Assembly: GCA_947586825.1 (NCBI GenBank)
Contig: CANPXU010000004.1
Coordinates: forward strand, 4,939 to 68,938
DNA from: an uncultured Bacilli bacterium
GTDB lineage: Bacteria; Bacillota_I; Bacilli_A; RF39; UBA660
Reading direction: 5' to 3'
Length of the DNA stretch: 64,000 bases
Within the stretch, counting starts at the first letter, position 1. The number at the start of each line of letters is the position of its first letter. The notes under the pieces were generated by a model. It saw only the letters and a list, made by a program, of their open reading frames with translations. It ran no database searches and was not told where the DNA came from. The position numbers and the translations under genes were made by a program. Positions 29,551-61,210 of the stretch are shown in pieces.

Positions 29551-30186
29551 TTATGGTTCAATATATTCTTTGCCAAGGTATTCAACTACCGCTTTGATTT
29601 TTTGCTCACTAAAGTTTTTCCAATTATCATCATTATAATAGTAAGCAAAATCTTCTTCATTGCTTAAATAGCTACCTTCAAAAATAAAATTATTAGTTTT
29701 AAAGCAATCATGAGGAATCCTTATAACAGCATAATAGTCATTGAAATAATACATTTGACGGTTACTCTTATCAAACATTTCACCATCCACAAAGTTTCTC
29801 GTATATACCCTAACATGGTCTTCCGTTATTTCGTAGGTCTTTTCCCAAGCATTTGCAATGTTATTTACAAGGACAAGTTCCTTGGTTGTAGCCTTCGCCG
29901 GAACTAGTATTTCCCATCCAGATAAAGTTTTTATATCATTACTATTATGATGATTACTATAGCTTACTTTAGCAACTGATCCATAATAACCTACGGCAAG
30001 CCCTTTACGGCTTATATCTGGAATATTATCATTTCCTAAAACTTTTCCATATGAATAATCATCCCGAAGAAGCAGTACATTAAGTCCATGCTCTTCATAA
30101 CGGGCTTTTTCATATTCACTTTGAATTAAGTTAAGCGTTTTCTCATCGATTACATCATTAAAGGCCCCGATATCGTCACCACCATG
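29551..30186 (-). pseudogene. 3' half of an N-acetylmuramoyl-L-alanine amidase (Amidase_3) gene split by the ICE
   Basis: Own translation of the Met-less open frame: (H)GGDDIGAFNDVIDEKTLNLIQSEYEKARYEEHGLNVLLLRDD...VSYSNHHNSNDIKTLSGWEILVP...KEYIEP*. The ORF track reports only the last 79 aa. Confidence 0.85.
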
Positions 30187-30210
30187 TCGTGGGTACTTGG
30201 TAACAAGGTA
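30187..30210. repeat. Left-end attachment-site arm (inverted repeat partner of 60212-60235)
   Basis: The reverse complement TACCTTGTTACCAAGTACCCACGA matches CCACCTTGTTATCAAGTATCCTTG at the right end (core ACCTTGTTAYCAAGTAYCC, 17/19). Confidence 0.8.
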
Positions 30211-30211
30211 A

Positions 30212-31831
30212 TTAGTCTAAATTAATGATATTCAAATGAATATCTATATCTCTACTTTTATCTTCTTTATTAACTTTACCTATTTTAACTACATCAACAA
30301 ATTCGTCAACAATTTCTTTAGTTAGTTTATCAATATGTCTATATTTTTCAAAAATATCTTTACTTGTTTTAATGTTGTTTTCCTTTTCCTTTATAGTACA
30401 TAATTCATCATTGATAATTGCAAGCCGTTTATTATACTCTTCAATTTCTTTTACAAATTTATCCTTAAATATCATAAAATCTTCTTGAGAAATTATACCT
30501 TCTAATTTATCTTCATATAAAGATTTATAATGATCTCGTTTTTTAGCTATTTTTTCTTCTAATAATTTCTTTTCATTATTTAATGCATCACTTTTACTTA
30601 AAGTAACACTGTCTAAAGACTTTTTTTGTAAAATATATAATCTTTGTAGTTCATCTACACTATAATATAAGTCTAATTGTTTATTTATTTCATCTAGTAT
30701 TATTTTTTCTAGCCTATCACATCGTATAGCTTTATTGTTATCACAATCTCTGCTAGCTAACAATCTGCCTTTGCATTTCAAATATGGTATATGTCCATCT
30801 TTTAAGTGGTATCTTTCTCTTTTGAAACAACAGCCACACTCTTTGCAGTAAACCTTTCGACTTAACATATATACTTGTCCTATTGACCTACTTATTTTAG
30901 TGTTAGATTCAAGCCTCTTTTTAACTGCATTCCAAGTATCCATATCGATTATTGCCTCATGAGTTCCATAAGAATATGTCCATTTTTCTTTTGGATTAAT
31001 AATGGATTTATGATTTTTATAACTAACATAAGTTCTTTTTCCTTGAACTAAATTACCTATATAAACTTCATTTCTTAATATTCTATAAATAGTATCCTGA
31101 GACCATTTTGTTTTTTCTTTAAATTTTGCTGTTCTACATACATATTTGCTTCCATTTGCTTTTTTATAATTAGTAGGAGTAATAATGCCTTTTTCATTCA
31201 AAATGTTAGCAATTCTAATATAGCCTAAGCCTGATTTTGATAAGTTAAATATCAATTTTACAGTTTCGGCTGCAACAGGATCTATTAATAGTTTATTTTT
31301 ATTTGATGGATCTTTCATATATCCATATGGAGCAAATGACCCTAAATACAAACCATCTTCTCTTTTATTTTTTAAAGATTTCCTTATGTTAGCTGATAAA
31401 TCTTCTAAATACCATTCGTTTATTAAACCGTTAATTTGTCTTGCTTTCTTATTAGATTCAATACTTGTATCAGCATTATCAACAATACTTACAAATCTAA
31501 CACCCCATTCAATAAACTTATTATGAAGATATTTCTCTATAACTTCCATATCTCTAGAAAATCTACTCTGAGTTTTACACAAAACTATATCTACAACTCC
31601 GTTTTCACAATCTTTTAATAATTTTTGAAACGCAGGCCTTGTACTATCTGCACCAGAATAATCATCATCACTATAAACATTTATTACTTCCCATTCATGT
31701 TCTAACGCATATTTTAATAACATACTTTTTTGATTAACAATAGATTCACTATCATCATCTTTGCTTTTTTTATACCTATCTTCATCTGAAAGCCTTACAT
31801 AAATATCAACTTTTTTCCTTATAGAACTCAA
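30212..31831 (-). CDS. Large serine recombinase (ICE integrase)
   Basis: Resolvase catalytic domain (VDIYVRLSDEDR...IVNQ), recombinase domain, zinc-ribbon (CKECGCCF...YLKCKGR) and a C-terminal coiled coil. The track start is TTG. An in-frame ATT at 31891 lies 8 nt after a strong GGAGG, so the start is uncertain. Confidence 0.9.
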   Translation of the reverse strand: MSSIRKKVDIYVRLSDEDRYKKSKDDDSESIVNQKSMLLKYALEHEWEVINVYSDDDYSGADSTRPAFQKLLKDCENGVVDIVLCKTQSRFSRDMEVIEKYLHNKFIEWGVRFVSIVDNADTSIESNKKARQINGLINEWYLEDLSANIRKSLKNKREDGLYLGSFAPYGYMKDPSNKNKLLIDPVAAETVKLIFNLSKSGLGYIRIANILNEKGIITPTNYKKANGSKYVCRTAKFKEKTKWSQDTIYRILRNEVYIGNLVQGKRTYVSYKNHKSIINPKEKWTYSYGTHEAIIDMDTWNAVKKRLESNTKISRSIGQVYMLSRKVYCKECGCCFKRERYHLKDGHIPYLKCKGRLLASRDCDNNKAIRCDRLEKIILDEINKQLDLYYSVDELQRLYILQKKSLDSVTLSKSDALNNEKKLLEEKIAKKRDHYKSLYEDKLEGIISQEDFMIFKDKFVKEIEEYNKRLAIINDELCTIKEKENNIKTSKDIFEKYRHIDKLTKEIVDEFVDVVKIGKVNKEDKSRDIDIHLNIINLD

Positions 31832-31966
31832 TTCTTCTACTTCTTCACTTTTAAAATTTACTTCATCATTTGGAAGTCTGATACTATTAATATAAAATGC
31901 CTCCTTTCTTTCAACAAGATTTTAAGATAAGATGTTAAAAATTTGTAATGTACTAAATTTAAATTG

Positions 31967-32107
31967 TTACATTTGACAAACATCATTATTTTGTTCTAAT
32001 AAAATTATTAATTTTAGTAATTTTTGATTAAAAGCTTTTTTTATGATGCTTTTATCATCAGAATCACAATTTATAAAAGTATTAACATTATATTTAATGT
32101 CATTCAA
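31967..32107 (-). CDS. Hypothetical 46-aa ORF (TTG start) between the TA pair and the recombinase
   Basis: GGGAGG lies 9 nt upstream of TTG at 32107. Translation is (M)NDIKYNVNTFINCDSDDKSIIKKAFNQKLLKLIILLEQNNDVCQM*. There is no homology evidence. Confidence 0.2.
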   Translation of the reverse strand: MNDIKYNVNTFINCDSDDKSIIKKAFNQKLLKLIILLEQNNDVCQM

Positions 32108-32217: not shown

Positions 32218-32580
32218 CTATTTATTGATATAAAATAAATCCATAAGAGCGTTATCAATTTCTTTTAATTGCTCGTTTTTAATAGTTCCAACATAGCCCT
32301 TTAATCTTTTTTTATCAATTACTCTAATTTGCTCCAACATTACTATAGAATTTGGTCTTATAGTATCAAATTGTTTTACTAATACATGACTTGGAAGTTC
32401 TATATTTTTTTTAGTAGATATAGGAGCAATAATTGTTGTTGGACCATGTTCATTACCAATATCATTTTGTATTACTACCACTGGCCTTATTCCACTCTGT
32501 TCACTACCAATAGTAGGATTTAAATCCGCATAAAAAATAGATCCTTTAACTATTTTCTTCATCTGTATCATCCTTTCCAT
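32218..32580 (-). CDS. mazF: MazF/PemK-family type II toxin endoribonuclease
   Basis: GSIFYADLNPTIGSEQSGIRPVVVIQNDIGNEHGPTTIIAPIS...MLEQIRVIDKKRL matches the PemK/MazF consensus. Confidence 0.85.
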   Translation of the reverse strand: MERMIQMKKIVKGSIFYADLNPTIGSEQSGIRPVVVIQNDIGNEHGPTTIIAPISTKKNIELPSHVLVKQFDTIRPNSIVMLEQIRVIDKKRLKGYVGTIKNEQLKEIDNALMDLFYINK

Positions 32581-32746
32581 TTTTTAATTCCCTAATTTTA
32601 ACTGATATATTCTTTCGCACATAAGGCAAATCTAGAATTCTACTATCATTAATAATCGTGTTAACTTGTTCTTTAATTTCAGCTTTTTCTTCACCTTCTA
32701 AAGTAAAAGAATATCGTTTATTAATTTTTATTTTATACTTTTTCAT
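32546..32746 (-). CDS. Putative cognate antitoxin (66 aa, acidic C-terminus)
   Basis: It overlaps the mazF start by 35 nt and is small with an acidic tail (KDDTDEENS). I recognise no AbrB/MazE-like motif. Confidence 0.5.
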   Translation of the reverse strand: MKKYKIKINKRYSFTLEGEEKAEIKEQVNTIINDSRILDLPYVRKNISVKIRELKNGKDDTDEENS

Positions 32747-33153: not shown

Positions 33154-33624
33154 CTAATTTTTTAATTTTTTCGAAATTTTTTCTAAAGCAATATCAATGC
33201 TAAACTTAACAGCCATTTTTGTACAATGTTCTTCATTTGCAATTTCTTCAAAAGTCATATCATCAAAGTAATATTTTTTTAACCTGTTTCGTTGGATCGA
33301 AGGCAGCTCTTTAATAGCTTTTTTTAATTCTTCATATAAAATATTATTTTCAACGATTTCATCGACTAATGGTGTCTTATTAGCAGCTTTTGAAGGCAAA
33401 TTATTTTCTAAAATATCTGAATGTTCTATATGGCGATCATATTCATTTAATATTTTAATATCATCAAGTTCAAACTTATCAAAAGCATAATATACTTCTT
33501 TATTAACTTTAACATTTTGCAAATGCCCTTTAGCATCTTTAAAAGTTACAATATATGTATTTTCAGAATAATTTAAAATATACGGATTATCTTTGCTTTT
33601 TCTTCTTTTTGGGCAATTACCCAT
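33154..33624 (-). CDS. Sigma-70 region-4-type DNA-binding regulator (ICE sigma-like factor)
   Basis: C-terminal LPSIQRNRLKKYYFDDMTFEEIANEEHCTKMAVKFSIDIALEKISKKL is a region-4 HTH. It resembles the Tn916 Orf7-type small sigma-like proteins as I remember them. Confidence 0.65.
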   Translation of the reverse strand: MGNCPKRRKSKDNPYILNYSENTYIVTFKDAKGHLQNVKVNKEVYYAFDKFELDDIKILNEYDRHIEHSDILENNLPSKAANKTPLVDEIVENNILYEELKKAIKELPSIQRNRLKKYYFDDMTFEEIANEEHCTKMAVKFSIDIALEKISKKLKN

Positions 33625-34357: not shown

Positions 34358-34825
34358 TTATTGTATTTCAAATTCAGCACTTATATAAAATTTATTATTA
34401 GGTTTATCATCTTTTTTAAAATATACTTCCTTAATTAAGCGGTACTTTCCCTTAGTAAAATTTCCATACTTACGTGTAAGAAGATCTATCTTTATTTTTA
34501 TTTGCCCTAACTCTTGAGATTTTACTTCTTCTTCATATAAGAAACAACCAACATTGTTAATTTCTTTTAATTCATACCATGTTCCATTTTTTTCTTTTTC
34601 GATACTAAAGCAGTAGTCATAATAAATACTCTGATCACTATTATTAGTAATAGTAAAAGTAGCCCCTTCATTAGTTATTGTTTCTTCGAGATTTTCAATC
34701 AATATATTAGAATTTTCAACTTTTATTTCAGATTTATCAGTCATGGTTACATCAGGTACTTCATTATTTTTATCACAAGAACACACTAAGAATAAACTAA
34801 TAAATAAGAATAATATTTTTTTCAT
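34358..34825 (-). CDS. Small lipoprotein with beta-sandwich-like domain (hypothetical)
   Basis: Signal plus lipobox MKKILFLFISLFLVCSC. The mature part (GATFTITNNSDQSIYYDYCFSIEKEKNGTWYEL...GKYRLIKEV) looks like an Ig-like beta domain. Confidence 0.6.
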   Translation of the reverse strand: MKKILFLFISLFLVCSCDKNNEVPDVTMTDKSEIKVENSNILIENLEETITNEGATFTITNNSDQSIYYDYCFSIEKEKNGTWYELKEINNVGCFLYEEEVKSQELGQIKIKIDLLTRKYGNFTKGKYRLIKEVYFKKDDKPNNKFYISAEFEIQ

Positions 34826-34975
34826 AATCGATTACTCCTTTCGCTGTGTTTAGCACCCACATAGTAATAAAAATTATTGTTTTATCTATTATACAATAAA
34901 CAAATTATTAAACAATTAACTGATTTAATAACAATATCCAGAAATTTAAAACCGTGGATTTTAAAATATTATTTC

Positions 34976-36190
34976 TTAATATAAAGTTATACCTAAAGAG
35001 GTGGTTATATTTCGTATTTTTATAGCATATGATTTATCATTATGCGTTAAAGACATGGTTCCTAATAAGTTAGGAGATTGTTTAAGTTCGAATAATGCTG
35101 ATCCGCTATCTCCTGTTTCATTTACTAAATCAGTTTGTATTAAATCTGTAAGAAATACTTCATCGCCAGTATGTGGGTCTGGTGCAGAATCTGAAGAGTA
35201 TGCAGAAGTTACAGTACCAATAGTAGCACCAGTCACTGCTCCATATTTTCCAACCTTTTGACCAACAAAAGGTAAAGTCGCAGCACCTAAGGTTATTCTA
35301 GGATAATATGGCCAGTTAGGAACGACATTTGAAATAGAGTCTGAAGTTTGTACAAACATTGCATCGACTGTACCACCATCTTTAAAATCTCTTTTTAAAA
35401 TTGGATTTCCATTAAATGTTGTAGTACCATCCATAACACAATGGCCTGCCGTAACATACCCTGCCTTGTTATTATATTTGGCTCTAAACCCTACTGAACA
35501 ACCACCAACTTTGCTACCAGGACTTAATGATGAAGTTAGAATTGCTTTATTGCTAGAATTAAATACTATTAAATTTGAATCTAAAACATTTACACGAAAT
35601 TCCTTTTGTTTGGCATCTGTATTATTCTCTAAATTAACAACAACCCTATTTTTAATAACATCTACATAAAAACCTACTACATTATCATAATGTAATGATG
35701 AAATTAAATCATTCAATGAATTATATATATGCAATAAATCATTAAATGAGTAATCAACATATTCTATAATTTCATTATCAGCAGCATTTGTTGTAGAATA
35801 ATAAGATGAATAAAGAGCATTCTTTGTACTTGGAACTTCATCTTTTACTATTTGTAAAACTAGCTTTTGATCATCATTTATATACATTCCTCCATAATAT
35901 TTTGGATATTCTTCCTCGTCCATGGTTGACGAAATTTTAAGCATATTCTCAATCTTATTCGCAGATTCTACTGCATAATTATTCAAGGAAATTATCTCTT
36001 CATAATTAGAACCATATTTTTCTTCTAAGGCTAAAGCTAAAGCGTTTTGAAATTCCTCAGTTGCACGCATAGCCTCAAAATCTATAGTTTCAGTTTCATT
36101 AATCTTTGTCGATGTATTTTGTTTTTTTGCTATTAAAGAGATTGATAGTGCACTTACCACTATTAATCCTATTGTTAATATTTTTTTCAT
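34976..36190 (-). CDS. Secreted S1-family serine protease, streptogrisin/alpha-lytic-protease-like, with N-terminal pro-region
   Basis: Signal peptide. The catalytic-domain motifs GGCSVGFRAKYNNKAGYVTAGHC (His), VDAMFV (Asp) and ETGDSGSALF (Ser) align with S. griseus protease B as I remember it. Confidence 0.8.
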   Translation of the reverse strand: MKKILTIGLIVVSALSISLIAKKQNTSTKINETETIDFEAMRATEEFQNALALALEEKYGSNYEEIISLNNYAVESANKIENMLKISSTMDEEEYPKYYGGMYINDDQKLVLQIVKDEVPSTKNALYSSYYSTTNAADNEIIEYVDYSFNDLLHIYNSLNDLISSLHYDNVVGFYVDVIKNRVVVNLENNTDAKQKEFRVNVLDSNLIVFNSSNKAILTSSLSPGSKVGGCSVGFRAKYNNKAGYVTAGHCVMDGTTTFNGNPILKRDFKDGGTVDAMFVQTSDSISNVVPNWPYYPRITLGAATLPFVGQKVGKYGAVTGATIGTVTSAYSSDSAPDPHTGDEVFLTDLIQTDLVNETGDSGSALFELKQSPNLLGTMSLTHNDKSYAIKIRNITTSLGITLY

Positions 36191-36254
36191 ATTTTTAATT
36201 CCTTCCTTTTTTATTTTTTTAAATAATCATAACTTAATATTTAATTCATTAACT

Positions 36255-36375
36255 CACATCCTTTTAAAAATTATTGCAATAATTTTTTAGAAGAATTACT
36301 CCTTCTAAAGGCAAAGACAATGTAGCACATTATAATTTTTAAAAGTAGAGAAAAATAAGCACGTTATAATTTAAA
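36255..36375 (-). repeat. Promoter/leader module copy A (upstream of the protease gene)
   Basis: Homologous to 37855-37975, with identical blocks caataattttttagaagaattact, tagcacattataa and aaaataagcac. On the minus strand TATAAT lies at 36329-36334. Confidence 0.7.
36266..36287. promoter_or_regulatory. 22-bp perfect palindrome, candidate operator
   Basis: AAAAATTATTG|CAATAATTTTT, about 45 nt downstream of the module's TATAAT on the minus strand. Confidence 0.5.
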
Positions 36376-36404
36376 AATGGGAGGGATTATATATCCCCTC
36401 TTCC
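36373..36404 (-). terminator. Terminator after the paralog-1 / small exported protein operon
   Basis: Minus strand: GAGGGGAT-ATATA-ATCCCTC(C) followed by CATTTTT. Confidence 0.6.
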
Positions 36405-36448
36405 AATATTTGTAGGTTTAAGTGCTTTTTTGTTTGTTTATATATTTT

Positions 36449-36874
36449 TTAATCATTAATAGAAGTTGTTCCTTCACTAGTGGCTATCCCTTTGTCAACT
36501 ATGTTATTTAAATTATTTTGTGAATTTTCTAACTCGTCTAAACAAATTATTTCAAATATTGGATCTTCCTCTAATGTGTATGGATTACCTTCTGAATCAT
36601 ATTCAACGTGCGAGCGAATAAAAAGAGAAGGTTCTTTACATGTAATTTCCTTTCCTTCATATTCGGCAAATTTATAAGCATCTTCAGTATTAGAATATCC
36701 TTGTTCAATTATTTTATCCTTAAGAGCCTGTAATTTTTCCTCATTTGTTATTTTTGCCTTGTCTTCGTTATTAAGACTTTTAGCAGACGAATTCTCACTT
36801 GTAATAAATAGTATACCGATAGTAGCGGCTATTAACGCAGCAACAGCTAATACTATGATTATAGTTTTTTTCAT
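36449..36874 (-). CDS. Small membrane-anchored/exported protein (hypothetical)
   Basis: N-terminal TM MKKTIIIVLAVAALIAATIGILFI. It starts 37 nt downstream of the upstream gene, which suggests co-transcription. Confidence 0.55.
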   Translation of the reverse strand: MKKTIIIVLAVAALIAATIGILFITSENSSAKSLNNEDKAKITNEEKLQALKDKIIEQGYSNTEDAYKFAEYEGKEITCKEPSLFIRSHVEYDSEGNPYTLEEDPIFEIICLDELENSQNNLNNIVDKGIATSEGTTSIND

Positions 36875-36911
36875 TTTTATTTCTCCTTATATACCAAATT
36901 ATATTTTAAAT

Positions 36912-37784
36912 CTAATCCGTAATAGTAAAATAAACTCCTGTCATATTATCATAAGAACTTCTAAGGTTAGCATCACTAAAATATACAGAACCACCTAAAC
37001 CATTAGCATTTAATGTATAACTCATTGATTGAGCAAGCGTTAAAGGCTTAGTAGCATGTTGATATGTTCCATAAAATTTGGTTGTTGTTGCTCCAGTAAA
37101 ATATCCTGAAACAGATATTATATTAATAGGTCGAAATTCATTTCCGCTTCTTATCAAAACAGATGTTCCATAACCATTAGACAGTTTTTTTCTTTGGCTT
37201 TCAGGTGTAAAATATCGCTCAGTATCTCTATGTTCTGCAGCACCATAGGATGTAGCTACAAATGTTCCGCCTGATGATTCCCAACGAATTGCATTAATGT
37301 CATAAGATGATATTTGTGGTATTGTTTTCCATTTTAAAACGCCAAAAATTTCATATTCACTATCAAATTGATAAGCTAGCATATAATATTGTTTGGCATT
37401 AGTTTCCCAGCAAACTACTCCTTCTGAACATAAATCCATAGGCATAATTGGCTCAAAATTATTATATTCTTCTTCAGTTATTTCCTGCTCATAATTAATA
37501 ATTCGACCATTTGCACCTTTAAAAGTACTAGTCATAATATACTTAGTTTCTGAAAATATTTTTTTACAATTTGAAATATCTTCCATTAATAAATCGTAGT
37601 GATCTTGAGATAAAAAATCCACTAATTCCCAACTAGTTGCATCTACAAGATACTCATAATCTTCTTTTGACATAATAACGCCTTTTTGGTTTGTATAATA
37701 TTCGTCTGTATTTTCTAATGCTGATACATTATTAATAGCAGATAAAGATAAAAATACTGCTATAAAACTAAAAAGTTTTTTCAT
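36912..37784 (-). CDS. Secreted protein, cargo paralog 1 (unknown family)
   Basis: Signal peptide MKKLFSFIAVFLSLSAINNVSA. It shares ordered motifs with 38760-39476: YYTN..SKEDYEYL, PIMPMD, ETNAK, LKW...SSYDI, NGYGTSV, GTYQHA, SYDNMTGVYFTI. Confidence 0.7.
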   Translation of the reverse strand: MKKLFSFIAVFLSLSAINNVSALENTDEYYTNQKGVIMSKEDYEYLVDATSWELVDFLSQDHYDLLMEDISNCKKIFSETKYIMTSTFKGANGRIINYEQEITEEEYNNFEPIMPMDLCSEGVVCWETNAKQYYMLAYQFDSEYEIFGVLKWKTIPQISSYDINAIRWESSGGTFVATSYGAAEHRDTERYFTPESQRKKLSNGYGTSVLIRSGNEFRPINIISVSGYFTGATTTKFYGTYQHATKPLTLAQSMSYTLNANGLGGSVYFSDANLRSSYDNMTGVYFTITD

Positions 37785-37854
37785 AATTTAATTTCTTCCT
37801 TTCTATATTTTTGAAAAAATTTAGTATATATAATATTTATGTTTAATTTATTGG

Positions 37855-37975
37855 CTCACCTCCTTTATAATTATTTCAATAATTTTTTAGAAGAATTACT
37901 TCTACTAAAAACAATTTAGCACATTATAAATCTTAAAAATAGGGGAAAATAAGCACACACTAAAATAGTGCTTAT
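37855..37975 (-). repeat. Promoter/leader module copy B (upstream of paralog 1)
   Basis: See copy A. TATAAT lies at 37923-37928 (minus strand). The imperfect palindrome ATAATTATTTCAATAATTTTTT is at 37867-37888. Confidence 0.7.
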
Positions 37976-38225
37976 TTATCTCTTTTATTATTTTTTGAAA
38001 AACGAAAAGCCTTTTTAGCTTGTTTATATATTTCTTTAAGTTCTTTTTTGGAATATATATATACGGACAATAAAGATCTTGTTCAAAGTCATCAAAAGAA
38101 TATTTATTTGCTCCAAAAAGCTCATCATGAATTTTCATTTCAAAAATGCATCTTTTTAAAACCTCACTTATAGCATACTCATGACTTACATCACAATATT
38201 TTTTTAATGAATTATCAATATTCAT
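37905..38225 (-). CDS. Hypothetical 106-aa ORF whose 3' end reads through a terminator hairpin and module B
   Basis: The first ~75 aa look like a normal soluble protein. The last ~30 codons are encoded by the hairpin ATAAGCAC...GTGCTTAT and the promoter module, so the true end is doubtful. Confidence 0.35.
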   Translation of the reverse strand: MNIDNSLKKYCDVSHEYAISEVLKRCIFEMKIHDELFGANKYSFDDFEQDLYCPYIYIPKKNLKKYINKLKRLFVFQKIIKEINKHYFSVCLFSPIFKIYNVLNCF

Positions 38226-38332
38226 CTATTATATTTCCTTTCATAATATAAAGTTGCAACATTTTATCATATTCCCAAGACTTTTGATTATAGCAAAATA
38301 AAAAGAGCAACAATATCTTAGGTAATGATAAA

Positions 38333-38763
38333 GTGCATAAGCTTAAACTAAGATGTTGTACAGAAGAGTTGGAAATGATACAAATTCAAATAGGCCATGT
38401 ACTATGAGTTAGTAATAAGACTATATGTAGATGGGAAACTGTAAAAAATTACATACCTAAAAAAATTAATTAAGTTTTATAATATATATAATTACAGAAT
38501 TGACTACGTCTTTTCATTAACAAATACTAACACGCAATATACTAATATTAACGTAAATCAAAAAAAATGGCAGTAATTTAAAAGCTATTCGCAAAAAGCA
38601 CAACCTAACGCAAGAAAAAGTGGCTAATAAAATGAGGATTTCACAGTCTTGTTATAGTCAATATGAAAACGGGAAATCTTTATTAACCACTATATCATTG
38701 TATTCTTTTTCAAAGGTTTTTAATGTATCTGCAGATCAAATATTGAATAGAGAAAAATGTTAA
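38333..38763 (+). pseudogene. Decayed tandem XRE-type HTH regulator (two frameshifts in A-runs plus one in-frame TGA)
   Basis: Own three-frame reading: ...KLKLRCCTEELEMIQIQIGHVL*VSNKTICRWETVKNYIPKK / LIKFYNIYNYRIDYVFSLTNTNTQY...NQKK / NGSNLKAIRKKHNLTQEKVANKMRISQSCYSQYENGKSLL...ADQILNREKC*. The frame changes fall at A7 (38459-38465) and A8 (38560-38567). Confidence 0.6.
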
Positions 38764-52063: not shown

Positions 52064-52408
52064 TTATCTTTCGTTATCAGGAACATCTTTTGTTTTCGAT
52101 GATAAGAAAGTTACTCTTTCAGCAATTACATTTGTTCTAAATTCTTTTTCACCATCCTTATTTTCAAAAGAACTGGATTGTAATCTTCCTTTTACTCCGA
52201 TTACATCACCCTTTTTGCAATAATCCATAGTGGTAGCTGCTATTCCGTCCCATAAAGTTACATTTATGAAATCGGTTTCATATTTTCCATCTGCATTTTT
52301 ATAATTTCGAGTTACAGCGATCGTTACATTAGTAACCTTTTTACCATCATCTAAATCCTTGATTTCTGGATCTGATGTTAGCCTTCCTACAAGTACAATA
52401 TTATTCAT
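52064..52408 (-). CDS. ssb: Single-stranded DNA-binding protein (ICE-encoded, short C-terminus)
   Basis: OB-fold signature MNNIVLVGRLTSDPE...TDFINVTLWDGIA...VIGVKGRLQSSSFE. It lacks the usual long Gly/Gln-rich tail. Confidence 0.85.
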   Translation of the reverse strand: MNNIVLVGRLTSDPEIKDLDDGKKVTNVTIAVTRNYKNADGKYETDFINVTLWDGIAATTMDYCKKGDVIGVKGRLQSSSFENKDGEKEFRTNVIAERVTFLSSKTKDVPDNER

Positions 52409-52729: not shown

Positions 52730-53362
52730 TTATTTTTCTAATTCGCAAATTACTATAATTTGGTTGTTTGTATTATGCCTGCAAGTTATAAGTGTCAATG
52801 TACTTATATCATTATTTCTATTTAAATTAAGAGTTCCTTTTTTTTCAATATCATATATACGGACAACCTTATAATTATAAGTTTTTCCTTTATAATCTAT
52901 TGTTACTTTATCGCCCACTACTAGCTTATCTAAATCTTGAAAATAAGAAATGCTTGCGTTACCAGAATGAGCAGCTAAGATAACATTACCATTTTCTTCA
53001 TCTGGCATATTTGAATCGTCTAATATTTCGACATTGTAACTAATATTATTTAAGTAACTATTTCGATCAACTAAACCTCTAATCAAATTGATTTTTGGAA
53101 TTTTAATAACCGCAATATATTCAATTTTATTAGTTTTTTGAGCTTGATTTTCGTCTTTCAAATGATCATTTTGATTATCTTCAACTACCACTTCTTGCTG
53201 TTCAATATAAAAATTTTTTATAGCTTCTTGCTCCATAGTAGTTATTACTTTTCTTGAAACAAAATGATAAATAATTAAAAGTAGACCTACAAAAATAAGT
53301 AAAAAGCCGATTATTTCTAACCAGCTTTTTTTACTTCTTTCTTTTTTGGTTTTCACTAACAA
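52730..53362 (-). CDS. Sortase (ICE-encoded, dedicated to the adjacent adhesin)
   Basis: N-terminal TM, His motif VILAAHSG and Cys motif TLTLITCR. It overlaps the adhesin 3' end by 32 nt. Confidence 0.8.
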   Translation of the reverse strand: MLVKTKKERSKKSWLEIIGFLLIFVGLLLIIYHFVSRKVITTMEQEAIKNFYIEQQEVVVEDNQNDHLKDENQAQKTNKIEYIAVIKIPKINLIRGLVDRNSYLNNISYNVEILDDSNMPDEENGNVILAAHSGNASISYFQDLDKLVVGDKVTIDYKGKTYNYKVVRIYDIEKKGTLNLNRNNDISTLTLITCRHNTNNQIIVICELEK

Positions 53363-56300
53363 TTATGAACCCACCTATTAAAATTAATAATAATCCACCA
53401 ATGATAAGTGTTTTTATTTCTGTTTTATCGGTATCAGGAATTTTGATTATTTTTTCATCTTTTATGGTCGATTTAACAACTTGGCCATCTTCTAAAATCT
53501 CAAAATACATTTTTTCTTCGTTTAAAAGATATCCTTCTGGGGCTTCCCTTTCTAGAATATAATATTTACCATATTCTAAATTTTCTATTATGATCTTACC
53601 TTCTTCATCGGTTTTTCCTGAAAATACTAATTCATCGTTTTCGTTATAAATTTCTATTAAAGTATTTGGAAGTGCTTCTCCCGTAGATAAATCTTCTTTG
53701 GTAAATTCAAGAGTTCCAACTATTTTCTTATTAGTCATTCCAGCTTTAACTATTTCTCCATTTTCTTTAATTTCGAAGTATATCTTTTCATCAGTAAGTT
53801 TATATCCAGTAGATGGCTCTTTTTCTATAATATAATATTTTCCGTATTCTAGATCTTCTATTATGACTTTTCCCTCTTCGTTAGTTATTCCCGAAAATAT
53901 TAATTCATCGTTTTCGTTATAGATCTCTATTAAAGTATTTGGAAGCTTTTCTCCTGTAGATAAATCTTCCTTGGTAAATTCCAAAGTTCCAGTAATTTTT
54001 TCGTTGGTCATTTCAGCTTTAACAACCTTACCATCTTCTAAAATTTCAAAATACACTTTTTCACCATTTAGAACATATCCTTCCGGAGCTTCTTTTTCCA
54101 GGATATAGTATTTGCCATACTCTAAATCTTTAATAACAATTTTTCCTTCATTATCAGTTCTTCCTGAGAATATTAATTCATCATTTTCAGCTTTATAGAT
54201 TTCTATTAAAGTATCTGGAAGAGAATCACCAGTAGATAGATCTTTTTTAGTGAATTCTAAATCACCTTTTATTTTCTCATTTGTCATATTTGCTTTAACT
54301 ATTTCTCCATTTTCTTTAATTTCAAAATATACTTTTTCCTCATTAAGTTTATATCCGGTAGATGGCTCTTTTTCTATAATATAATATTTTCCGTATTCTA
54401 AATCCTCTACTAAAATTTTACCTTCTTCGTTTGTTTTACCCGAAAATACTAATTCATCGCTTTCGTTATAGATTTCTATTAAAGTATCTGAAATACCTTT
54501 ACCAGTTGTTAGATCTTCCTTAGTAAATTCGAGATCACCTTTTATTTTTTCATCCTTCATATTAGCTTTAATTACTTGGCCATCCTCTAAAATCTCAAAG
54601 TACATTTTTTCTTCGTTAAGAATATATCCTTCTGGAGCTTCCTTTTCTAGAATGTAATATCTTCCTAACTTCAAATCACTAATAACTATTTTCCCTGTTT
54701 CATCTGTTCTTCCTGAGAATATTAATTCATCATTTTCAGTATAAATTTCTATTAAGGTATTAGGAAGAGTTTCGCCTGTAGATAAATCTTCTTTAGTAAA
54801 TTCTAAAATTCCTTTTTTCAAATAGTTTAAAGTGGTATATGATTCATACACAATTTTTGTTTCTGAATCAATTTCTGTTAGTTCAAAATAATGTTTTTCA
54901 TTATCAAGCACATACTCATCACCTGTTTTTACTTCAATTAAGTAATACTTACCTAAAGGCAGCTCTTTACTAATTGCGTAACCATCAGCGTTGGTAGTCA
55001 AAGTATCAACTAAATCATCTTTACTATAATATAAATGATTAGCGTCAGAAGAAAGTATATCTTCTGCAGCATAAATTTCAAATACTACTCCTGATAAATT
55101 TTTAGAATCATAATAATACTCTCCTTTATCAATCACTATTTTTTCACCCGTTTTATGAATTTCTATTTTTCCTTTAATAGGATAATCTTTATATGTAACT
55201 TCGATCACAGGTCCATAAGTTGTATATACATAATGAGAATCATCACCGATAGTAAACTCTACTCCATCTTTATTAATCAAATAACCTTTCGGTGACATTA
55301 TCTCTACAATTTTGTAATGTCCTGCTTCAAGTTTTAAAAATGTCATAGATTTGCCTGTCTCGTCAGTTACAAACTTATCATAAACTTTTCCTCCTACATA
55401 TTGAGAAACATATTGTCCTGTATCAAGATTCATGATTCTAAAAGTTGCTCCTGCTAAAGCAATAGTTTTTCCTGTTTCATAATCAACTTTTTTAATTTGA
55501 ATATAGGCCGATAGTTTATTATTAAGAATATTATAATAGTGTTCTTTAGGACTATCCTCGTCGACCGTGATATAAAAATCATTAATCTTTTGATATCCAG
55601 TAGTTGAGTTTAATTGATGAAATCGCCAAACTCCATAAGGTAATTCAATAGAAGCATACCCGTTTTTATCTGTTGTAATTTTGTTGAATAATCTGCCATC
55701 CGGATAATATATTTCAAATGTAATATTCTGTTCTGCATTTAGAAATTTTGTTTCTCCATCAACATAATCATATTGTTTTAAAATTGTAATGTCATTTTTT
55801 ATAACTTTTTCTAGCACATCTACAGATACATCTACATGGTTGCTATCAATTGTAAAATAATATTTTTGTGTATCTAATAAATACCCTTTACTTGGAGTAA
55901 TTTCTTGCAAATAAAATCTCCCCATTTTTGGAAGATAATCACTTTGTGCATGGCCCTTTGAATCTGTTGTCATCTCACCGATATAGTTTCCATCTTCGCT
56001 ATAAATTCCATAAACTGCACCTTCTAAAGTGGCTTGCCCTTGTGCAGTTGATGATCTTGTATCATTGTCTTTTTTATCAAGTGATATTTTTCCTCCTGCT
56101 ATATTAATATTGATAGATGTTTGAACTGGATCATAACTTCCAACTTGTACAATGTCTTGTGTACCAGGCTTAACATATACAATAGTTGGATGTGTATATC
56201 TTGTATCTTTTTTAGAAAATGTAAGAGTAGTATTTCCAACATTATTTGCTGTTATATTCAAGTCATTTCCGTTTTTATTTATTGTAACTATGTTATTACT

Positions 56301-56951
56301 TGATGTTACCTCAAAATTTGAAAGAACACTATTTAAATCAGTTATTTTTTTAGAACTTCCTATTACCATATCTATATTATCAATTTCAAACTTTGGTAAT
56401 ATAGCGTGTTTATTTAGTAAATTTTCCATTTCTTGCATTTCTGCATCATATTTTGTTGATTTTTGGATTTGTCCTAAGGTATCAGTAAAATAAATATCTA
56501 ATCCACTAGGTACTGTTTGCCAAATCATGACTTGCGTTATTGAATACCATTTTAAATCACTATGATCTACTTCACTATCAGTATAACCATATCCATAATA
56601 AGCAAGTAATTGAATTCTTCGCCACTGATCCTGTGTAATATTTGCAATAGTTGCTTGATTATTATCATATCCTGTATATGTTTCTTGGATATTTAATAGT
56701 TCAGTTGGTTCCATACAATACACAAACTGATTATCACTATTTCTTGTAATCATTGATAGTTGTTGATACTCTATATATCCATCTGAGTGCTTTTTATCAA
56801 CATAAGCTTCAGGTATAAACATATATTTATCGTTAAATGTTTCAGTATATGTATTCTCATCCGCCTTGGCAGTTGGCCCTATAGTAATCACTATTAGTAA
56901 TAATAACAAATATTTTAATTTTCTTTTCATCTTTCCCTCCTTTTTTATCAA
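53331..56951 (-). CDS. Surface adhesin: N-terminal thioester (TQxxIW) domain + SpaA/CnaB-type repeats + C-terminal sorting signal
   Basis: Signal peptide, the Cys motif FVYCMEP and the Gln motif SITQVMIWQT (thioester-domain signature). There are multiple GYxL...YxF prealbumin-like repeats. The C-terminus is KIPDTDKTEIKTLIIGGLLLILIGGFIIVSENQKRKK. Confidence 0.8.
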   Translation of the reverse strand: MIKKEGKMKRKLKYLLLLLIVITIGPTAKADENTYTETFNDKYMFIPEAYVDKKHSDGYIEYQQLSMITRNSDNQFVYCMEPTELLNIQETYTGYDNNQATIANITQDQWRRIQLLAYYGYGYTDSEVDHSDLKWYSITQVMIWQTVPSGLDIYFTDTLGQIQKSTKYDAEMQEMENLLNKHAILPKFEIDNIDMVIGSSKKITDLNSVLSNFEVTSSNNIVTINKNGNDLNITANNVGNTTLTFSKKDTRYTHPTIVYVKPGTQDIVQVGSYDPVQTSININIAGGKISLDKKDNDTRSSTAQGQATLEGAVYGIYSEDGNYIGEMTTDSKGHAQSDYLPKMGRFYLQEITPSKGYLLDTQKYYFTIDSNHVDVSVDVLEKVIKNDITILKQYDYVDGETKFLNAEQNITFEIYYPDGRLFNKITTDKNGYASIELPYGVWRFHQLNSTTGYQKINDFYITVDEDSPKEHYYNILNNKLSAYIQIKKVDYETGKTIALAGATFRIMNLDTGQYVSQYVGGKVYDKFVTDETGKSMTFLKLEAGHYKIVEIMSPKGYLINKDGVEFTIGDDSHYVYTTYGPVIEVTYKDYPIKGKIEIHKTGEKIVIDKGEYYYDSKNLSGVVFEIYAAEDILSSDANHLYYSKDDLVDTLTTNADGYAISKELPLGKYYLIEVKTGDEYVLDNEKHYFELTEIDSETKIVYESYTTLNYLKKGILEFTKEDLSTGETLPNTLIEIYTENDELIFSGRTDETGKIVISDLKLGRYYILEKEAPEGYILNEEKMYFEILEDGQVIKANMKDEKIKGDLEFTKEDLTTGKGISDTLIEIYNESDELVFSGKTNEEGKILVEDLEYGKYYIIEKEPSTGYKLNEEKVYFEIKENGEIVKANMTNEKIKGDLEFTKKDLSTGDSLPDTLIEIYKAENDELIFSGRTDNEGKIVIKDLEYGKYYILEKEAPEGYVLNGEKVYFEILEDGKVVKAEMTNEKITGTLEFTKEDLSTGEKLPNTLIEIYNENDELIFSGITNEEGKVIIEDLEYGKYYIIEKEPSTGYKLTDEKIYFEIKENGEIVKAGMTNKKIVGTLEFTKEDLSTGEALPNTLIEIYNENDELVFSGKTDEEGKIIIENLEYGKYYILEREAPEGYLLNEEKMYFEILEDGQVVKSTIKDEKIIKIPDTDKTEIKTLIIGGLLLILIGGFIIVSENQKRKK
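53450..54816 (-). repeat. Five tandem ~88-aa (about 265-bp) coding repeats in A-B-A-B-A order
   Basis: The units start KG(I/D)LEFTKEDLSTG... Type A carries EKEAPEGY..FEILEDG and type B carries EKEPSTGYKL..FEIKENGEIVKA. Coordinates are approximate to +/-5 nt. Confidence 0.8.
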
Positions 56952-56964
56952 ATAAAAAAACTAC

Positions 56965-57564
56965 CTAATCTGGTAGCTTTACAGTATGATAGTCTATCTT
57001 TTGGGCTGTATTTGGCTCATACAAAGTTAGCATATAATAGTTGTCTCCACAATCATCTGGGAAAAAATCACAATAATATCCGTACCCTATCGCTTTATAT
57101 TTATCTCCGATCTCAATACATTCTTCCATTGATGAAAAATCGGCTCGAACAAAGCTCATATCAAACTTTTTAGGTGTACAATTTTTAGTGTTTGTTTCTT
57201 CATTTTCTACAATTGAACTATTAATTGTTTCATTGGATTGTTGACTATCAGTATTTGTATCATTTGTTATAGTACTGCTTTCTTTATTATCGCTAATAAT
57301 CTCATCATCTGTTTTGTTAGATAAGTTCGTTTCATCTTCACTTATTTTTTGCTCATCATTAATCATTTCTGAATTCTCATCTTCATCATTTTCAATTATT
57401 TGGATAGAATCATCAATGCTTTCATTTAATGTAACATTATTGCTTACATCTGCTTGCTCATTTTCTTTTTGAGAATTATTAAGTTTTTTAACTTTTGTGA
57501 CGCAAGTTATAGTAACAACTGTTATCAACAATACAGCTGCTACTATTATAATTGATTTTTTCAC
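56965..57564 (-). CDS. Membrane-anchored acidic Asn/Ser/Thr-rich protein with Cys-containing C-terminal domain (hypothetical)
   Basis: TM segment IIIVAAVLLITVVTITCV, a low-complexity acidic linker, and a C-terminal CTPKKFDMSF...ECIEIGDKYKAIGYGYYCDFFPDDCGDNYY. Confidence 0.5.
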   Translation of the reverse strand: MKKSIIIVAAVLLITVVTITCVTKVKKLNNSQKENEQADVSNNVTLNESIDDSIQIIENDEDENSEMINDEQKISEDETNLSNKTDDEIISDNKESSTITNDTNTDSQQSNETINSSIVENEETNTKNCTPKKFDMSFVRADFSSMEECIEIGDKYKAIGYGYYCDFFPDDCGDNYYMLTLYEPNTAQKIDYHTVKLPD

Positions 57565-57655
57565 TAAATCACCCTTTCTAATTTTGCATTATAAATAATG
57601 CTTTTTAAATTACAAATTTACAATTTGATAATACTATTTAATTATTACATAATTA

Positions 57656-58618
57656 TCACCTACTTTCTCTACTTTTTTGTTTTAAATATTTTGTATAATA
57701 GCCACAGGCTTTCAACACATAATCTTCGATTTTATCTCTTTGAATATTCTTTGGAATCACTTTAAAAAGATCTGCTTCTTTAATTTGAATTTTAGCTATT
57801 TGATTAGGCTTTTCTTGCGACATCTTATTTATAATTGTCATACTATCAAGTGTCCCATTCTTGCTTAATTCTCTTAATTCAATTGCTTGTGCTAAACTAG
57901 GTGTAGCTAAATTTTCATTAATAAAATCTGCTAAAACTTTTTGTTCATTTTCCTTTAGATACGATAATTCTACTGCTGGATTAAAAGCTATAGATGGTGT
58001 TTCTTTTAATTCAGAATTATCTACCATATTCAAAAGCTCTTTTGTAAGATAAGTTAATCGTATATATCTTTGTATATTTCTTCCGCTTTCACCATATTCT
58101 TTTCCTAGTTTATCATCGCTTCTTAACTTCGTGACAACTTGTCGCAAAGTTGCGTCATGTTGTTGGGAAGTTCCTTGATGCTTTATTGCCTCATATTTCA
58201 TTTTATAAGCATAAGCTTTTTCTGATGGCAATAATTTTTCTCTTTGAAGATTACTATCAACCATGAAAATTGTTGCTTCATCATCAGATAAATCCTTAAT
58301 GATACATGGAATTTTATCCATTCCTAAACTCTCACAGGCATATTTTCTACGATGTCCTGATACCATTTCAAACCTTCCATTATCTTTTTTTCTGATTATT
58401 ACAGGCGATAATAGTCCACTAGTTTGAATACTTTCTTTTAATGCTTTCATATCTTCATTTTCAAGTACTTTAAATGGATGATCTTTAAAATTATCAATTA
58501 ATGAAATATTAATTTCTTCTATTTTTTCTTTTTTTTCATCCTCTCTCTGTTTTTGCGTGGTATAAAAGTCATCTAGATTGAATGATATTGGAATGTCTTG
58601 TGGCTTCTTCTCGCTCAT
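57656..58618 (-). CDS. parB: ParB/Spo0J-like partition protein
   Basis: ParB N-terminal domain GLLSPVIIRKKDNGRFEMVSGHRRKYA, downstream of parA. Confidence 0.85.
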   Translation of the reverse strand: MSEKKPQDIPISFNLDDFYTTQKQREDEKKEKIEEINISLIDNFKDHPFKVLENEDMKALKESIQTSGLLSPVIIRKKDNGRFEMVSGHRRKYACESLGMDKIPCIIKDLSDDEATIFMVDSNLQREKLLPSEKAYAYKMKYEAIKHQGTSQQHDATLRQVVTKLRSDDKLGKEYGESGRNIQRYIRLTYLTKELLNMVDNSELKETPSIAFNPAVELSYLKENEQKVLADFINENLATPSLAQAIELRELSKNGTLDSMTIINKMSQEKPNQIAKIQIKEADLFKVIPKNIQRDKIEDYVLKACGYYTKYLKQKSRESR

Positions 58619-59399
58619 AATTAATCACCTCTTTTGCAAAATTAATATATCCCTGAGATACTTTATTATTTTTATCATAAGAAATAATACTTTCGCCCAT
58701 TCTCGTAGATTCTGCTGCTCTTACTGCCCTCGGAATTTGTGTATCAAAAAGTTTGAATACCGTGCCAAAGGTTTCTTTTAATTCATTAGTTATACTTTTT
58801 GAAAGATTAGTTCTACCATCTACCATTGTTAAAAGTATTCCTCCAACTTTTAAATCAGGATTTATCACCTTTCTAACTTTAAGAATTGTACTCATTAAAT
58901 GACTCATTCCCTTTGCAGCAAGGAATTCTGATTGTACGGGAATAATAACTTTATCTGAACTTGCTAAAGCGTTTATTGTTAGCATTGCTAAGCTTGGCAT
59001 ACAATCTATTAAAATATAATCATAATCCTTTTTTAATTTTGAAATTGAATTTTTTAAAGTATATTCTCTACACATTGCATTAGCTAAGCTTACTTCTGTT
59101 GATGCAAGTTCAAGGTTTGAAGGTAATAAATCGACACCTTCATCATGCTTTAATATTGCTTCTTTTGGATCAAATTCCATTTCATTCATTGTCTTGTTCA
59201 TAATAGTTGATAGTGTGTTAGGAATATTGTCTGGATTATGCCATCCCATATAAGTTGTTAAATCTGCTTGCGGATCTGCATCAACTAACAGCACTCGCTT
59301 TCCTCGCTGAGCTAAAGCAACTCCTAAATTAAAAGTGGTAGTTGTTTTGCCAACGCCACCTTTTTGGTTAGCAATTGCAATAATTTCACATTTAGACAT
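58569..59399 (-). CDS. parA: ParA/Soj-family partition ATPase
   Basis: Deviant Walker A IAIANQKGGVGKTTTTFNLG, then VLLVDADPQ. Confidence 0.9.
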   Translation of the reverse strand: MSKCEIIAIANQKGGVGKTTTTFNLGVALAQRGKRVLLVDADPQADLTTYMGWHNPDNIPNTLSTIMNKTMNEMEFDPKEAILKHDEGVDLLPSNLELASTEVSLANAMCREYTLKNSISKLKKDYDYILIDCMPSLAMLTINALASSDKVIIPVQSEFLAAKGMSHLMSTILKVRKVINPDLKVGGILLTMVDGRTNLSKSITNELKETFGTVFKLFDTQIPRAVRAAESTRMGESIISYDKNNKVSQGYINFAKEVINYEREEATRHSNIIQSR

Positions 59400-59402
59400 A
59401 TT

Positions 59403-60164
59403 TCACCTCCCTTCGTTATCTAAAAAATTATAATCATCCCAAAGCGAACTACTTTTATTACGATTATTAAGTAATTCAAAGTTAGATTCGATAGATGCTT
59501 TAAGATAACCATATTTATTAGTAATCTCATTGCCATCCTCATCTATAAAGTGTCGTGATATTACTCTAGGCACTATATAATGAATTGCACTATATAACTG
59601 CTTATAATCATGTCCCTTACTCAAGTAATTTGCAAATAGATTGTCATAATAAAAAGAAAATGCATCATCTTCTGTTATGTAATTAAGATTAATTAATTCA
59701 TTTGTAAGAATATTGTGTTCAAATTTTGAGCTAACAGTTTTATCTATTTCATCTATTTGTTCATTAGTATTTATTTGTGGCGTATTATCCGTATTCGGTT
59801 CTACCGTATACGGATAATCCGTACTTGGTGAATTTCGTGAATTAACACGCATTTTAAACGGTTTCTCATAAATCAAATAATTATATTCAAACTTTCCGTT
59901 TTCGCCTCTAGCAGGCTCTATTTCAAGGTAATGATTGAGCTTTAATTCATTTAACGCTGATCGAATTGCATCTTTATTTTCTTTGCAGATTGTTACAAGT
60001 CCTTTCATGCTATAATCCCAATTTTCAGGTAGACTTAACATAAAAGATAATAATCCCTTTGCTTTTAATGATAAATTTCTATCTCTTAAATGATAATTGC
60101 TCATAATAGTAAAATCACTAGTTTTATTTATTTTAAATGTTGTTATAAAGATTCTCCTTTCCAT
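59403..60164 (-). CDS. Putative ICE replication initiator (winged-helix N-terminal domain)
   Basis: TIMSNYHLRDRNLSLKAKGLLSFMLSLPENWDYSMKGLVTICKENKDAIRSALNELK resembles the wHTH of RepA_N/DnaD-like mobile-element initiators as I remember them. It is the first gene inside the right end. Confidence 0.55.
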   Translation of the reverse strand: MERRIFITTFKINKTSDFTIMSNYHLRDRNLSLKAKGLLSFMLSLPENWDYSMKGLVTICKENKDAIRSALNELKLNHYLEIEPARGENGKFEYNYLIYEKPFKMRVNSRNSPSTDYPYTVEPNTDNTPQINTNEQIDEIDKTVSSKFEHNILTNELINLNYITEDDAFSFYYDNLFANYLSKGHDYKQLYSAIHYIVPRVISRHFIDEDGNEITNKYGYLKASIESNFELLNNRNKSSSLWDDYNFLDNEGR

Positions 60165-60211
60165 AAAAAAGAACTGATCTGTTGATCAGTTCATAATAGA
60201 TTTTTTATTTT

Positions 60212-60235
60212 CCACCTTGTTATCAAGTATCCTTG
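60212..60235. repeat. Right-end attachment-site arm
   Basis: CCACCTTGTTATCAAGTATCCTTG, the inverted partner of 30187-30210. Confidence 0.8.
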
Positions 60236-61210
60236 ATGACCTGGATCAATTACTATATCATACTCATATTTAAAGTCAGAAATGGTGATACTAACTTGTT
60301 TCTTTAAATCGTATTTGAAAGTAAGCATCTTATCACCTATTCGACCTCGACATAATCTAAATTGCTCTGGTATATAGGTAATAGCTCTTTTATCATCAAG
60401 AGTAATCGTATAAGTACCATTTTTCAAGTTAGTTATATCAATATAACCCTCGAAATTATTTCCACCCGTATTTTTTACTTTATAGTCGGTGCAAACTTTA
60501 TCTTTACATAAATATATCTTATTATCAAATTTATCATTTTTAACATAACCTTTTACATAGAATCCATCATCAGTATATTCCATATAAGTTATTTCGTTAT
60601 CTTTAAGAAGTGATTTATAATCAATATTGTTTTTATCCTTAACAACGTAGACATTTCTTGTTACGTGAGCAGTATTACCACTTTCATCCGCGACATAAAT
60701 ATCAACCGTGTATGCCCCTTCTCTTTTAGGATCAACATTTTCAATAATTTGAATTTTACCATTTATCTTTTCATCAATGTTATCAGTGGCTATTGCCCCT
60801 TCATCCTCATAGTAGTAATCATCATCAACAGCATCTATCTCAATGATATAAGGATTATCACCAATTAGTTCAAGCTCGGGAGCAATATTATCATTTACTC
60901 TAACATATCTTATTAACTCTTCTTCATAATCTTTATATTTTAAAGTATATTTAACTTCGAATTCACCATATTTACTAGTATCTACTTTACTTAAATCTGT
61001 TTCAACATAACTAGATAAATCCGTACCATGTAAATCGGCTACTACACCTGCATCTACATACTTTTCATTTAATTCTATATTTGTTATCTCATCGCCCTTT
61101 AACTCAAATGTTAGCTTAGGCTTATTAACAATCATAAGACCGATAACAAGTACAATTAACAATATTCCTACGATAAAGGTTAGCAAAGGAATAAATTTAT
61201 TTTTATCCAT
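60236..61210 (-). pseudogene. 5' half of the split Amidase_3 gene (TM anchor + Ig-like DUF5011-type region + start of catalytic domain)
   Basis: MDKNKFIPLLTFIVGILLIVLVIGLMIV...APELELIGDNPYIIEID...KYEYDIVIDPGH, after which the track ORF continues into ICE sequence (QGYLITRWKIKNLL*). Confidence 0.85.

Follow-up and report, generated by a model that had tools for sequence, protein, structure and literature searches.

Conjugative elements that integrate through a serine recombinase with a 2-bp crossover are well known in Clostridia. The cuts of serine recombinases are staggered by 2 bp, and the core used by TndX and TnpX is GA. Among conjugative or mobilizable elements of clostridia, Tn5397 (TndX) and Tn4451/Tn4453 (TnpX), as well as CTn2, CTn7 and Tn6104 of Clostridioides difficile, each carry a large serine recombinase (LSR) at one element end, and in elements of the Tn5397/Tn4451 type the 2-bp crossover is flanked by imperfect inverted repeats. 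A 2-bp repeat has been reported for Tn6104 and TnpX, and both excision and transfer have been shown for the 30.5-kb CTn4 of C. difficile 630 (CD1091-CD1118; PMC3158075). A DUF4368 tail is typical of the TndX-like clade, a DUF4368-rich group of LSRs that Durrant et al. (2022) described as 'multi-targeting', with no mention of amidase targets (PMC10083194). A further set of LSR-bearing elements intervenes in sporulation genes: skin in sigK, SPbeta in spsM and gin in gerE (PMC4191935, PMC5595907, PMC5025042). Here we describe an integrative and conjugative element (ICE) in a 64,000-nt stretch of DNA, hereafter the window, from an uncultured Bacilli bacterium (RF39; UBA660; GCA_947586825.1, contig CANPXU010000004.1, positions 4,939-68,938, forward strand). 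As an ICE it is ordinary and of known build; its site is a codon for the histidine of a conserved motif in a cell-wall amidase gene.

Positions 30187-60238 of the window, 30,052 bp in length, are very probably an ICE that was integrated by its serine recombinase into the His codon of an Amidase_3 gene. An earlier sequence-only reading of the window had proposed such an element of about 30.05 kb with both ends placed to the base pair, and every coordinate that it gave was re-read and is correct. On the right, the called minus-strand ORF 60191-61210 reads ...KYEYDIVIDPGH up to the junction and then leaves the amidase for 14 unrelated codons, QGYLITRWKIKNLL, ending in a stop inside the element. 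On the left, an open frame that lacks a start codon (30183-29551) begins GGDDIGAFNDVIDEKTL. Deletion of 30187-60238 joins these two halves in frame as ...VIDPGHGGDDIGA..., and the product is a 535-aa protein with a transmembrane (TM) segment, Ig-like domains and an Amidase_3 domain whose Pfam profile is matched over positions 1-172 of 174, across the joint. Of the codons of the gene, 324 lie in the head and 211 in the tail, and both parts are free of stops and frameshifts. The departure of the right-hand ORF from the amidase, the Met-less frame and the in-frame fusion had all been read in this way before, and each was confirmed.

Does the uninterrupted gene exist in nature? The sequence-only reading had held that a continuous amidase gene in related strains which did not join at CAT would speak against the proposed ends. 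Four relatives were compared, and all of them join exactly at CAT without a gap. Three are other species of the same genus (G018, G019 and G021, with 73%, 72% and 93% amino acid identity, respectively), and their DNA crosses the rebuilt joint gap-free as ATTGAYCCNGGNCATGGNGGNGAYGAY. The fourth is a 535-aa homolog from a protein collection, 91% identical over 100% of its length; full-length homologs with both domains number more than 300 in that collection. The ENA contig that encodes the 91% identical protein aligns to the joined flanks of the window in a single high-scoring segment pair of 3,026 nt at 87.9% nucleotide identity, and its neighbourhood matches as well, the upstream gene encoding a methyltransferase and the downstream gene being convergent.

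The only identity between the two junctions of the window is the trinucleotide CAT on the gene strand, and this CAT is also common to the empty site of the relatives. The same trinucleotide (plus-strand ATG) had been noted at both ends before and reads as described. Just inside the junctions lie two inverted 19-nt arms, which on re-alignment are 17/19 identical. At up to three mismatches, the arm occurs in the whole window at the two ends only (0.03 matches expected by chance), and a match of at least 17/19 in register within 2 bases was seen in 1 of 20,000 random pairs of 40-mers from the window. In the rebuilt attachment site of the circle, attP, the arms are separated by a 10-nt spacer, TTGATGTCGT on the plus strand, so that the symmetry axis falls between the T and the G of ATG, which is between C and A on the gene strand, where it had been placed earlier; each arm is 4 bp from the central CA. 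The rebuilt chromosomal site, attB, contains ATTGATCCAGGTCATGGTGGTGACGAT, and the rebuilt attP contains CCAAGTACCCACGACATCAAGGATACTTG. Two earlier statements need qualification. The attP had been called palindromic: it is an inverted repeat, although an imperfect one, and the spacer itself is asymmetric. The recombinase gene had been said to end 1 nt from the left arm: 2 nt separate its stop codon (30212-30214) from the 19-nt arm, and a distance of 1 nt requires that one unmatched base be added to the arm.

Relatives of the recombinase bear on the crossover point. The LSRs of L043 and L044 are 97.9% identical and those of L015 and L042 98.5% identical, and the members of each pair lie in different amidase paralogs. 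In both pairs the element ends are identical up to ...AGCCA and then run into differing host sequence, the next base being C or T (CAC or CAT). Complete related elements with both junctions were found only among LSR relatives of about 53% identity: G187 (12.7 kb), G191 (9.4 kb) and G190 (8.9 kb). For all three, the attP is symmetric about CA; rebuilt, it reads CTGGGT-15 nt-CA-15 nt-ACCCAG in G187 and TTGGGT-15 nt-CA-15 nt-ACCCAA in G191. The other junction of the 72-75% identical relatives was sought within 10-kb flanks, where no inverted arm or DPGH site was found. The LSR pairs, the complete relatives and the symmetry in the window together place the 2-bp core on the CA of the His codon and support these two bases as the likely crossover. 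The window element would resemble Tn5397/Tn4451-type elements in having an LSR at one end and a 2-bp crossover between imperfect inverted repeats, with a core of CA where TndX and TnpX have GA. The earlier interpretation of the locus as a serine-recombinase ICE is in this way upheld by gene content, by the empty site in relatives and by the evidence for a CA crossover.

The three complete relatives (G187:C3, G190:C2, G191:C2; L131-L133) are 9-13-kb elements without genes for a type IV secretion system (T4SS) that carry amidase-homing LSRs. They encode a 428-468-aa protein with the motif LAQIGSHNKREKK, which by eye resembles MOBV-type (Mob_Pre) relaxases, and are possibly mobilizable.

What does the recombinase recognize? 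In LSR relatives of 60-76% identity, the stop codon of the recombinase is followed by a 25-nt arm beginning TTACCTTG and then by CAT GGN GGN of a LysM-type amidase; relatives of 72-75% identity keep the position and part of the sequence of this arm, with 25 nt from stop codon to CA. We surveyed the targets of 100 sampled LSR loci from Bacilli-labelled and Clostridia genomes. Thirty-four adjoin a piece of an amidase gene with the His codon as its first codon, and four more adjoin an amidase gene head in the opposite orientation (38/100 in all). The amidases used by the lineage are CwlD-like, LysM-type or of the present type with TM and Ig-like domains, and targets cluster strongly by clade on the LSR tree. 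LSRs that are nearly identical are found in different amidase paralogs, although motif and position are the same every time. Of two sister clades, one (L020, L028, L029, L071, L077, L080, L087, L089, L105) adjoins the ABC-ATPase signature region (LSGGMKQRV / QRVALIRTL...LLLDEP) in either orientation, and the other (L093, L095, L097, L100, L101, L108, L109, L112, L115, L116) adjoins a manganese-catalase/CotJC-like motif, AAEQKARTTYDNILR. On these comparisons, the lineage probably homes to DNA that encodes the zinc-binding DPGHGG motif, and not to one particular gene; every Amidase_3 gene, whatever the host, would then be a potential landing site.

This bears on how such enzymes are classified. 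Like the multi-targeting clade of Durrant et al., the window LSR carries DUF4368, and relatives that are 98% identical lie in different target gene clusters, which would move the lineage toward 'multi-targeting' by the criterion of that paper. In contrast to that clade, the different targets share the DPGHGG motif and the crossover position; specificity would be for the motif, and not relaxed. The comparison suggests that the several targets of this lineage may reflect one shared coding motif. TndX/TnpX-type elements use many loosely related sites, whereas the window LSR appears to use a conserved protein-motif coding sequence. For one LSR lineage, the DNA that encodes a catalytic motif (DPGHGG of Amidase_3) would then serve as a portable attB across paralogs, in the Bacilli-labelled and the Clostridia genomes alike. 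Shared coding-motif targets may explain part of the 'multi-targeting' LSRs of large surveys, and the lineage may be a source of natural LSR/att pairs in which a protein sequence suffices to predict attB. In the literature searched, we found no relevant description of an amidase or cwlD as the target of an LSR or ICE, nor of ICEs in RF39. New at this locus are the full conjugative element as carrier, the third amidase paralog as target and the splitting of a second amidase in the same genome.

A small element of this lineage is present in a cultured strain. In Marasmitruncus massiliensis Marseille-P3646 (L063; NZ_FYDE01000005.1, locus 3737-7680), a 3.87-kb element splits a cwlD-like gene between ...VIDAGH and GGYDGGAVG; its LSR is 44% identical to that of the window, with the identity block CAGGGCATG, and two further ORFs resemble tRNA-modification enzymes by eye.

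The second split amidase is on another contig of the host metagenome-assembled genome (G000: 1.196 Mb, 51 contigs, 82% complete, 29.5% G+C). Contig C16 (1-594) opens with the final 11 codons of another LSR gene and with an element end that matches the one in G070 exactly, followed by CAC GGA AAT AAA GAT CCT GGG. A CwlD-like fragment starts at this His codon (TIGR02883, 197 bits, profile 7-189). In this genome, then, cwlD too is interrupted at that codon, by a second element of which the body is unassembled. The third Amidase_3 gene of the host is intact. A survey of 22 genomes of the genus showed the CwlD-like gene split at the His codon in G000 and G021 and intact in 16 others. The LysM-type amidase is cut at profile positions 78-92 in 9/22, which marks a second hot spot of insertion into Amidase_3 genes, at HxNAGG, directly after ...SNHINAGG. 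In G124 (C12:1-19000; L036 and L119), two elements whose LSRs differ divide one LysM-type amidase gene into three parts; the second of these elements is 14.8 kb long and carries a type I restriction-modification system and an LSR 33% identical to that of the window.

The features of the locus are collected in Table 1. All annotated genes of the element are on the minus strand, and every defining class of ICE gene lies between the arms. In the LSR, the catalytic domain PF00239 is matched with 85.2 bits over residues 10-160, and PF07508 (Recombinase, 87.8 bits) and PF13408 (Zn_ribbon_recom, 31.1 bits) are both above cut-off; the DUF4368 match (PF14287) is marginal at 26.7 bits against a cut-off of 25, and this domain is also precomputed in most relatives. 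R13, L14 and S15 are invariant in an alignment of six relatives, and the best solved relative is the N-domain of TnpX (2mhc). The gene order sigma-r4, PemK toxin, small ORF and LSR recurs in L129, and a protein similar to the HTH_36 protein ('NYHLRD') opens element B of G124. For the 544-aa membrane protein no Pfam or NCBIfam match was obtained, and its only match in the PDB (E = 0.17, to a designed protein) is not meaningful. A prophage or non-conjugative island was considered and rejected, as T4SS and relaxase genes are present and phage genes are not. The sequence-only reading had described a complete mobilization, T4SS and partition gene set on one strand: relaxase, MobC, coupling protein, VirB4, PrgI and ParAB are there, on one strand, but completeness of the T4SS was not fully borne out, owing to the start of virB4.

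Table 1. Features of the element and its insertion site (window coordinates)
Feature	Coordinates	Strand	Evidence or remarks
Amidase, C-terminal half	29551-30186	minus	(H)GGDDIGAFND... to stop codon; without own start codon
Left junction	30184-30186		plus-strand ATG (gene-strand CAT); predicted 2-bp crossover CA = plus-strand 30185-30186
Left arm, ACCTTGTTACCAAGTACCC	30191-30209	minus	recombinase-proximal half of attP
Large serine recombinase, 539 aa, DUF4368 tail	30212-31831	minus	four Pfam domains above cut-off
46-aa ORF	31967-32107	minus	TTG start; GGGAGG ribosome-binding site 8 nt upstream
MazF/PemK toxin	32218-32580	minus	family match
66-aa ORF overlapping MazF, putative antitoxin	32546-32746	minus	position upstream of toxin
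Sigma-70 region-4 protein, 156 aa, regulator	33154-33624	minus	family match
Cargo block	34358-40718	minus	Big_14 lipoprotein, 404-aa secreted protein, two paralogous secreted proteins, membrane-anchored XRE regulator
544-aa membrane protein	40775-42409	minus	no family; possible T4SS cell-wall hydrolase, from position only
VirB4-like ATPase, CD1110 family	42427-44766	minus	969.3 bits (NCBIfam curated cut-off 325); frame open for 779 codons
PrgI (VirB3-like), 86-aa ORF, DUF3846 protein, 278-aa and 131-aa membrane proteins	44748-47061	minus	PrgI 106.9 bits
VirD4-like coupling protein, CD1115 family	47058-48872	minus	532.4 bits (NCBIfam curated cut-off 250); T4SS-DNA_transf 211 bits
DUF3801 protein, relaxase, MobC/NikA-like accessory protein	49066-51423	minus	family matches
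MobA/VirD2-type relaxase	49778-51109	minus	PF03432, 130.8 bits
DUF3848 protein and SSB	51698-52408	minus	family matches
Sortase and 1206-aa thioester-domain/SpaA-repeat surface adhesin	52730-56951	minus	family matches
199-aa protein, ParB, ParA, 253-aa HTH_36 protein	56965-60164	minus	HTH_36 protein is first gene inside right end
Right arm, ACCTTGTTATCAAGTATCC	60214-60232	plus	other half of attP
Right junction	60236-60238		same plus-strand ATG; predicted crossover CA = plus-strand 60237-60238
Amidase, N-terminal half	60236-61210	minus	TM helix, Ig-like domains (PF16403), ends ...VIDPGH

In build, the element is closest to CTn4. It has a similar size of about 30 kb, its VirB4 and coupling protein score far above the cut-offs of the families named after the CTn4 genes CD1110 and CD1115, and it has the T4SS genes of the Firmicute type (PrgI, DUF3801, relaxase and MobC). 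It differs from CTn4 in its host, an uncultured 1.2-Mb spore-former of the gut, in its cargo, in a G+C content of 28% as opposed to 46.6%, and in its target, the amidase His codon. In its mode of action it would be comparable with the clostridial serine-recombinase conjugative transposons Tn5397, CTn2 and CTn7.

How did the element arrive, and could it leave again? We favour integration in which the LSR, of a DUF4368-bearing TnpX/TndX-like lineage that takes the coding sequence of a conserved amidase motif as its target, would have recombined the attP of the circle with a chromosomal attB that lies within the coding sequence for the zinc-binding motif D-P-G-H-G-G in a membrane-anchored cell-wall amidase of the Amidase_3 type. 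The staggered 2-bp cut, a chemistry taken from what is established for serine recombinases, would fall on the CA of the His codon, and precise excision would restore the gene. Transfer would proceed through a CTn4-type module of CD1110-family VirB4, CD1115-family coupling protein, PrgI, MobA/VirD2-type relaxase and MobC, the MazF toxin pair may serve retention of the element, and we infer that it is still mobile. Several results weigh against this picture. The conserved first 66 codons of virB4 (44569-44766) contain no ATG, GTG or TTG start, the first canonical start codon being at 44568, and where the G015 homolog has ATG ATA AAA the window element has ACA ATA AAA. The 544-aa, 278-aa and 131-aa membrane proteins match no family, so that completeness of the mating channel is an assumption. 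Searches of metagenome contigs with the exact attP 24-mer and with a degenerate 54-nt attB pattern returned 0 matches each, the protein collection held no intact amidase of the same strain (the best was 91% identical), and G+C content (28.1% in the ICE, 28.5% in the flanks) gives no independent sign of foreign origin. The absence of a canonical virB4 start, the failure to find an attP or a same-strain empty site, and a junction that is the same in several assemblies without variation are what one would expect of a decaying, immobile remnant, which would have integrated as described, would no longer transfer and perhaps no longer excise, and would be kept by vertical descent and the MazF addiction module. 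We regard this as possible but doubtful, given that all ICE genes other than virB4 are full-length open frames with strong family scores, that neither amidase half has acquired a stop or frameshift, and that an ATT codon (44758-44760) 10 nt after GGAG could start virB4. The element is also absent from 20 of the 21 other genomes of the genus, where a VirB4 of this type occurs elsewhere only in G015 (63% identical) and relatives of the LSR are at most 46% identical; this restricted distribution suggests that the element may be a recent gain.

Could the ICE instead be a developmentally excised element like skin and SPbeta, which, along with the sister element in cwlD, is excised from the chromosome of the mother cell during sporulation, so that the amidases are rebuilt only there and the germ line keeps the element? 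If so, a conjugative element would have become a developmental gene switch. The host has spo0A (G000:C36:4138-4875, 226.8 bits, cut-off 200) and spoIVA (G000:C29:1423-2898, 608.9 bits, cut-off 459.9), both above curated cut-offs; a related element interrupts the spore-cortex amidase gene cwlD at that same codon elsewhere in this genome; cwlD-like genes are interrupted by clostridial relatives too, as in Marasmitruncus massiliensis; and both halves of the target are intact. As in skin, SPbeta and gin, an LSR-bearing element lies within an ORF that precise excision would rebuild, in a host with core sporulation genes. Yet the carrier here is a full conjugative element, and the target is not a known sporulation gene: nothing marks the TM and Ig-like amidase as such, its neighbours being genes for a methyltransferase of the Methyltransf_4 family (TrmB-type), a GH3 hydrolase and a sortase. 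Shuffled sequence yields promoter-like matches at least as often as the surroundings of the LSR do, and the position of the element follows from homing to a conserved motif, with no benefit to the host required. The resemblance to skin-like elements is limited to topology and a sporulating host, and we consider a developmental role improbable. An error of assembly or binning that joined an ICE to amidase halves would be conceivable for an 82%-complete genome in 51 contigs, but hardly deserves credence here. Both junctions lie inside one 69-kb contig, and the ends are reciprocal in their shared CAT, inverted arms and in-frame rebuilt gene. Four other assemblies contain, at 99.98-100% identity, the split ORF with its tail of element sequence and as much as 3 kb of the right end, and this repetition of the right junction excludes misassembly.

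The LSR gene is preceded by a 46-aa ORF that reads ...IKYNVNTFIN...FNQKLLKLIILLE... and belongs to no Pfam family. More than 30 distinct loci of the Bacilli branch, those of L014-L059 and L125-L131 among them, have an ORF of 42-48 aa that lies 100-220 nt upstream of their LSR gene, and these loci include clades whose target is not an amidase. This fixed position next to the LSR suggests a role with the recombinase, and the 46-aa ORF is, on position, a candidate recombination directionality factor (RDF). TndX and TnpX are not known to act with such a factor, in contrast to an LSR that is preceded by a conserved 42-48-aa ORF. The RDF virtual-pulldown paper does not treat this LSR clade.

Homologs of the LSR are widespread in the family. 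In a survey of one genome per genus, 92 of 151 genomes carry them, often several per genome, and serine-recombinase elements are a visible share of the genome in this uncultured 1.2-Mb spore-forming gut lineage, for which the window element is a case with cleanly resolved ends. For an endospore former, a genome of about 1.2 Mb (82% complete) with spo0A and spoIVA is unusually small.

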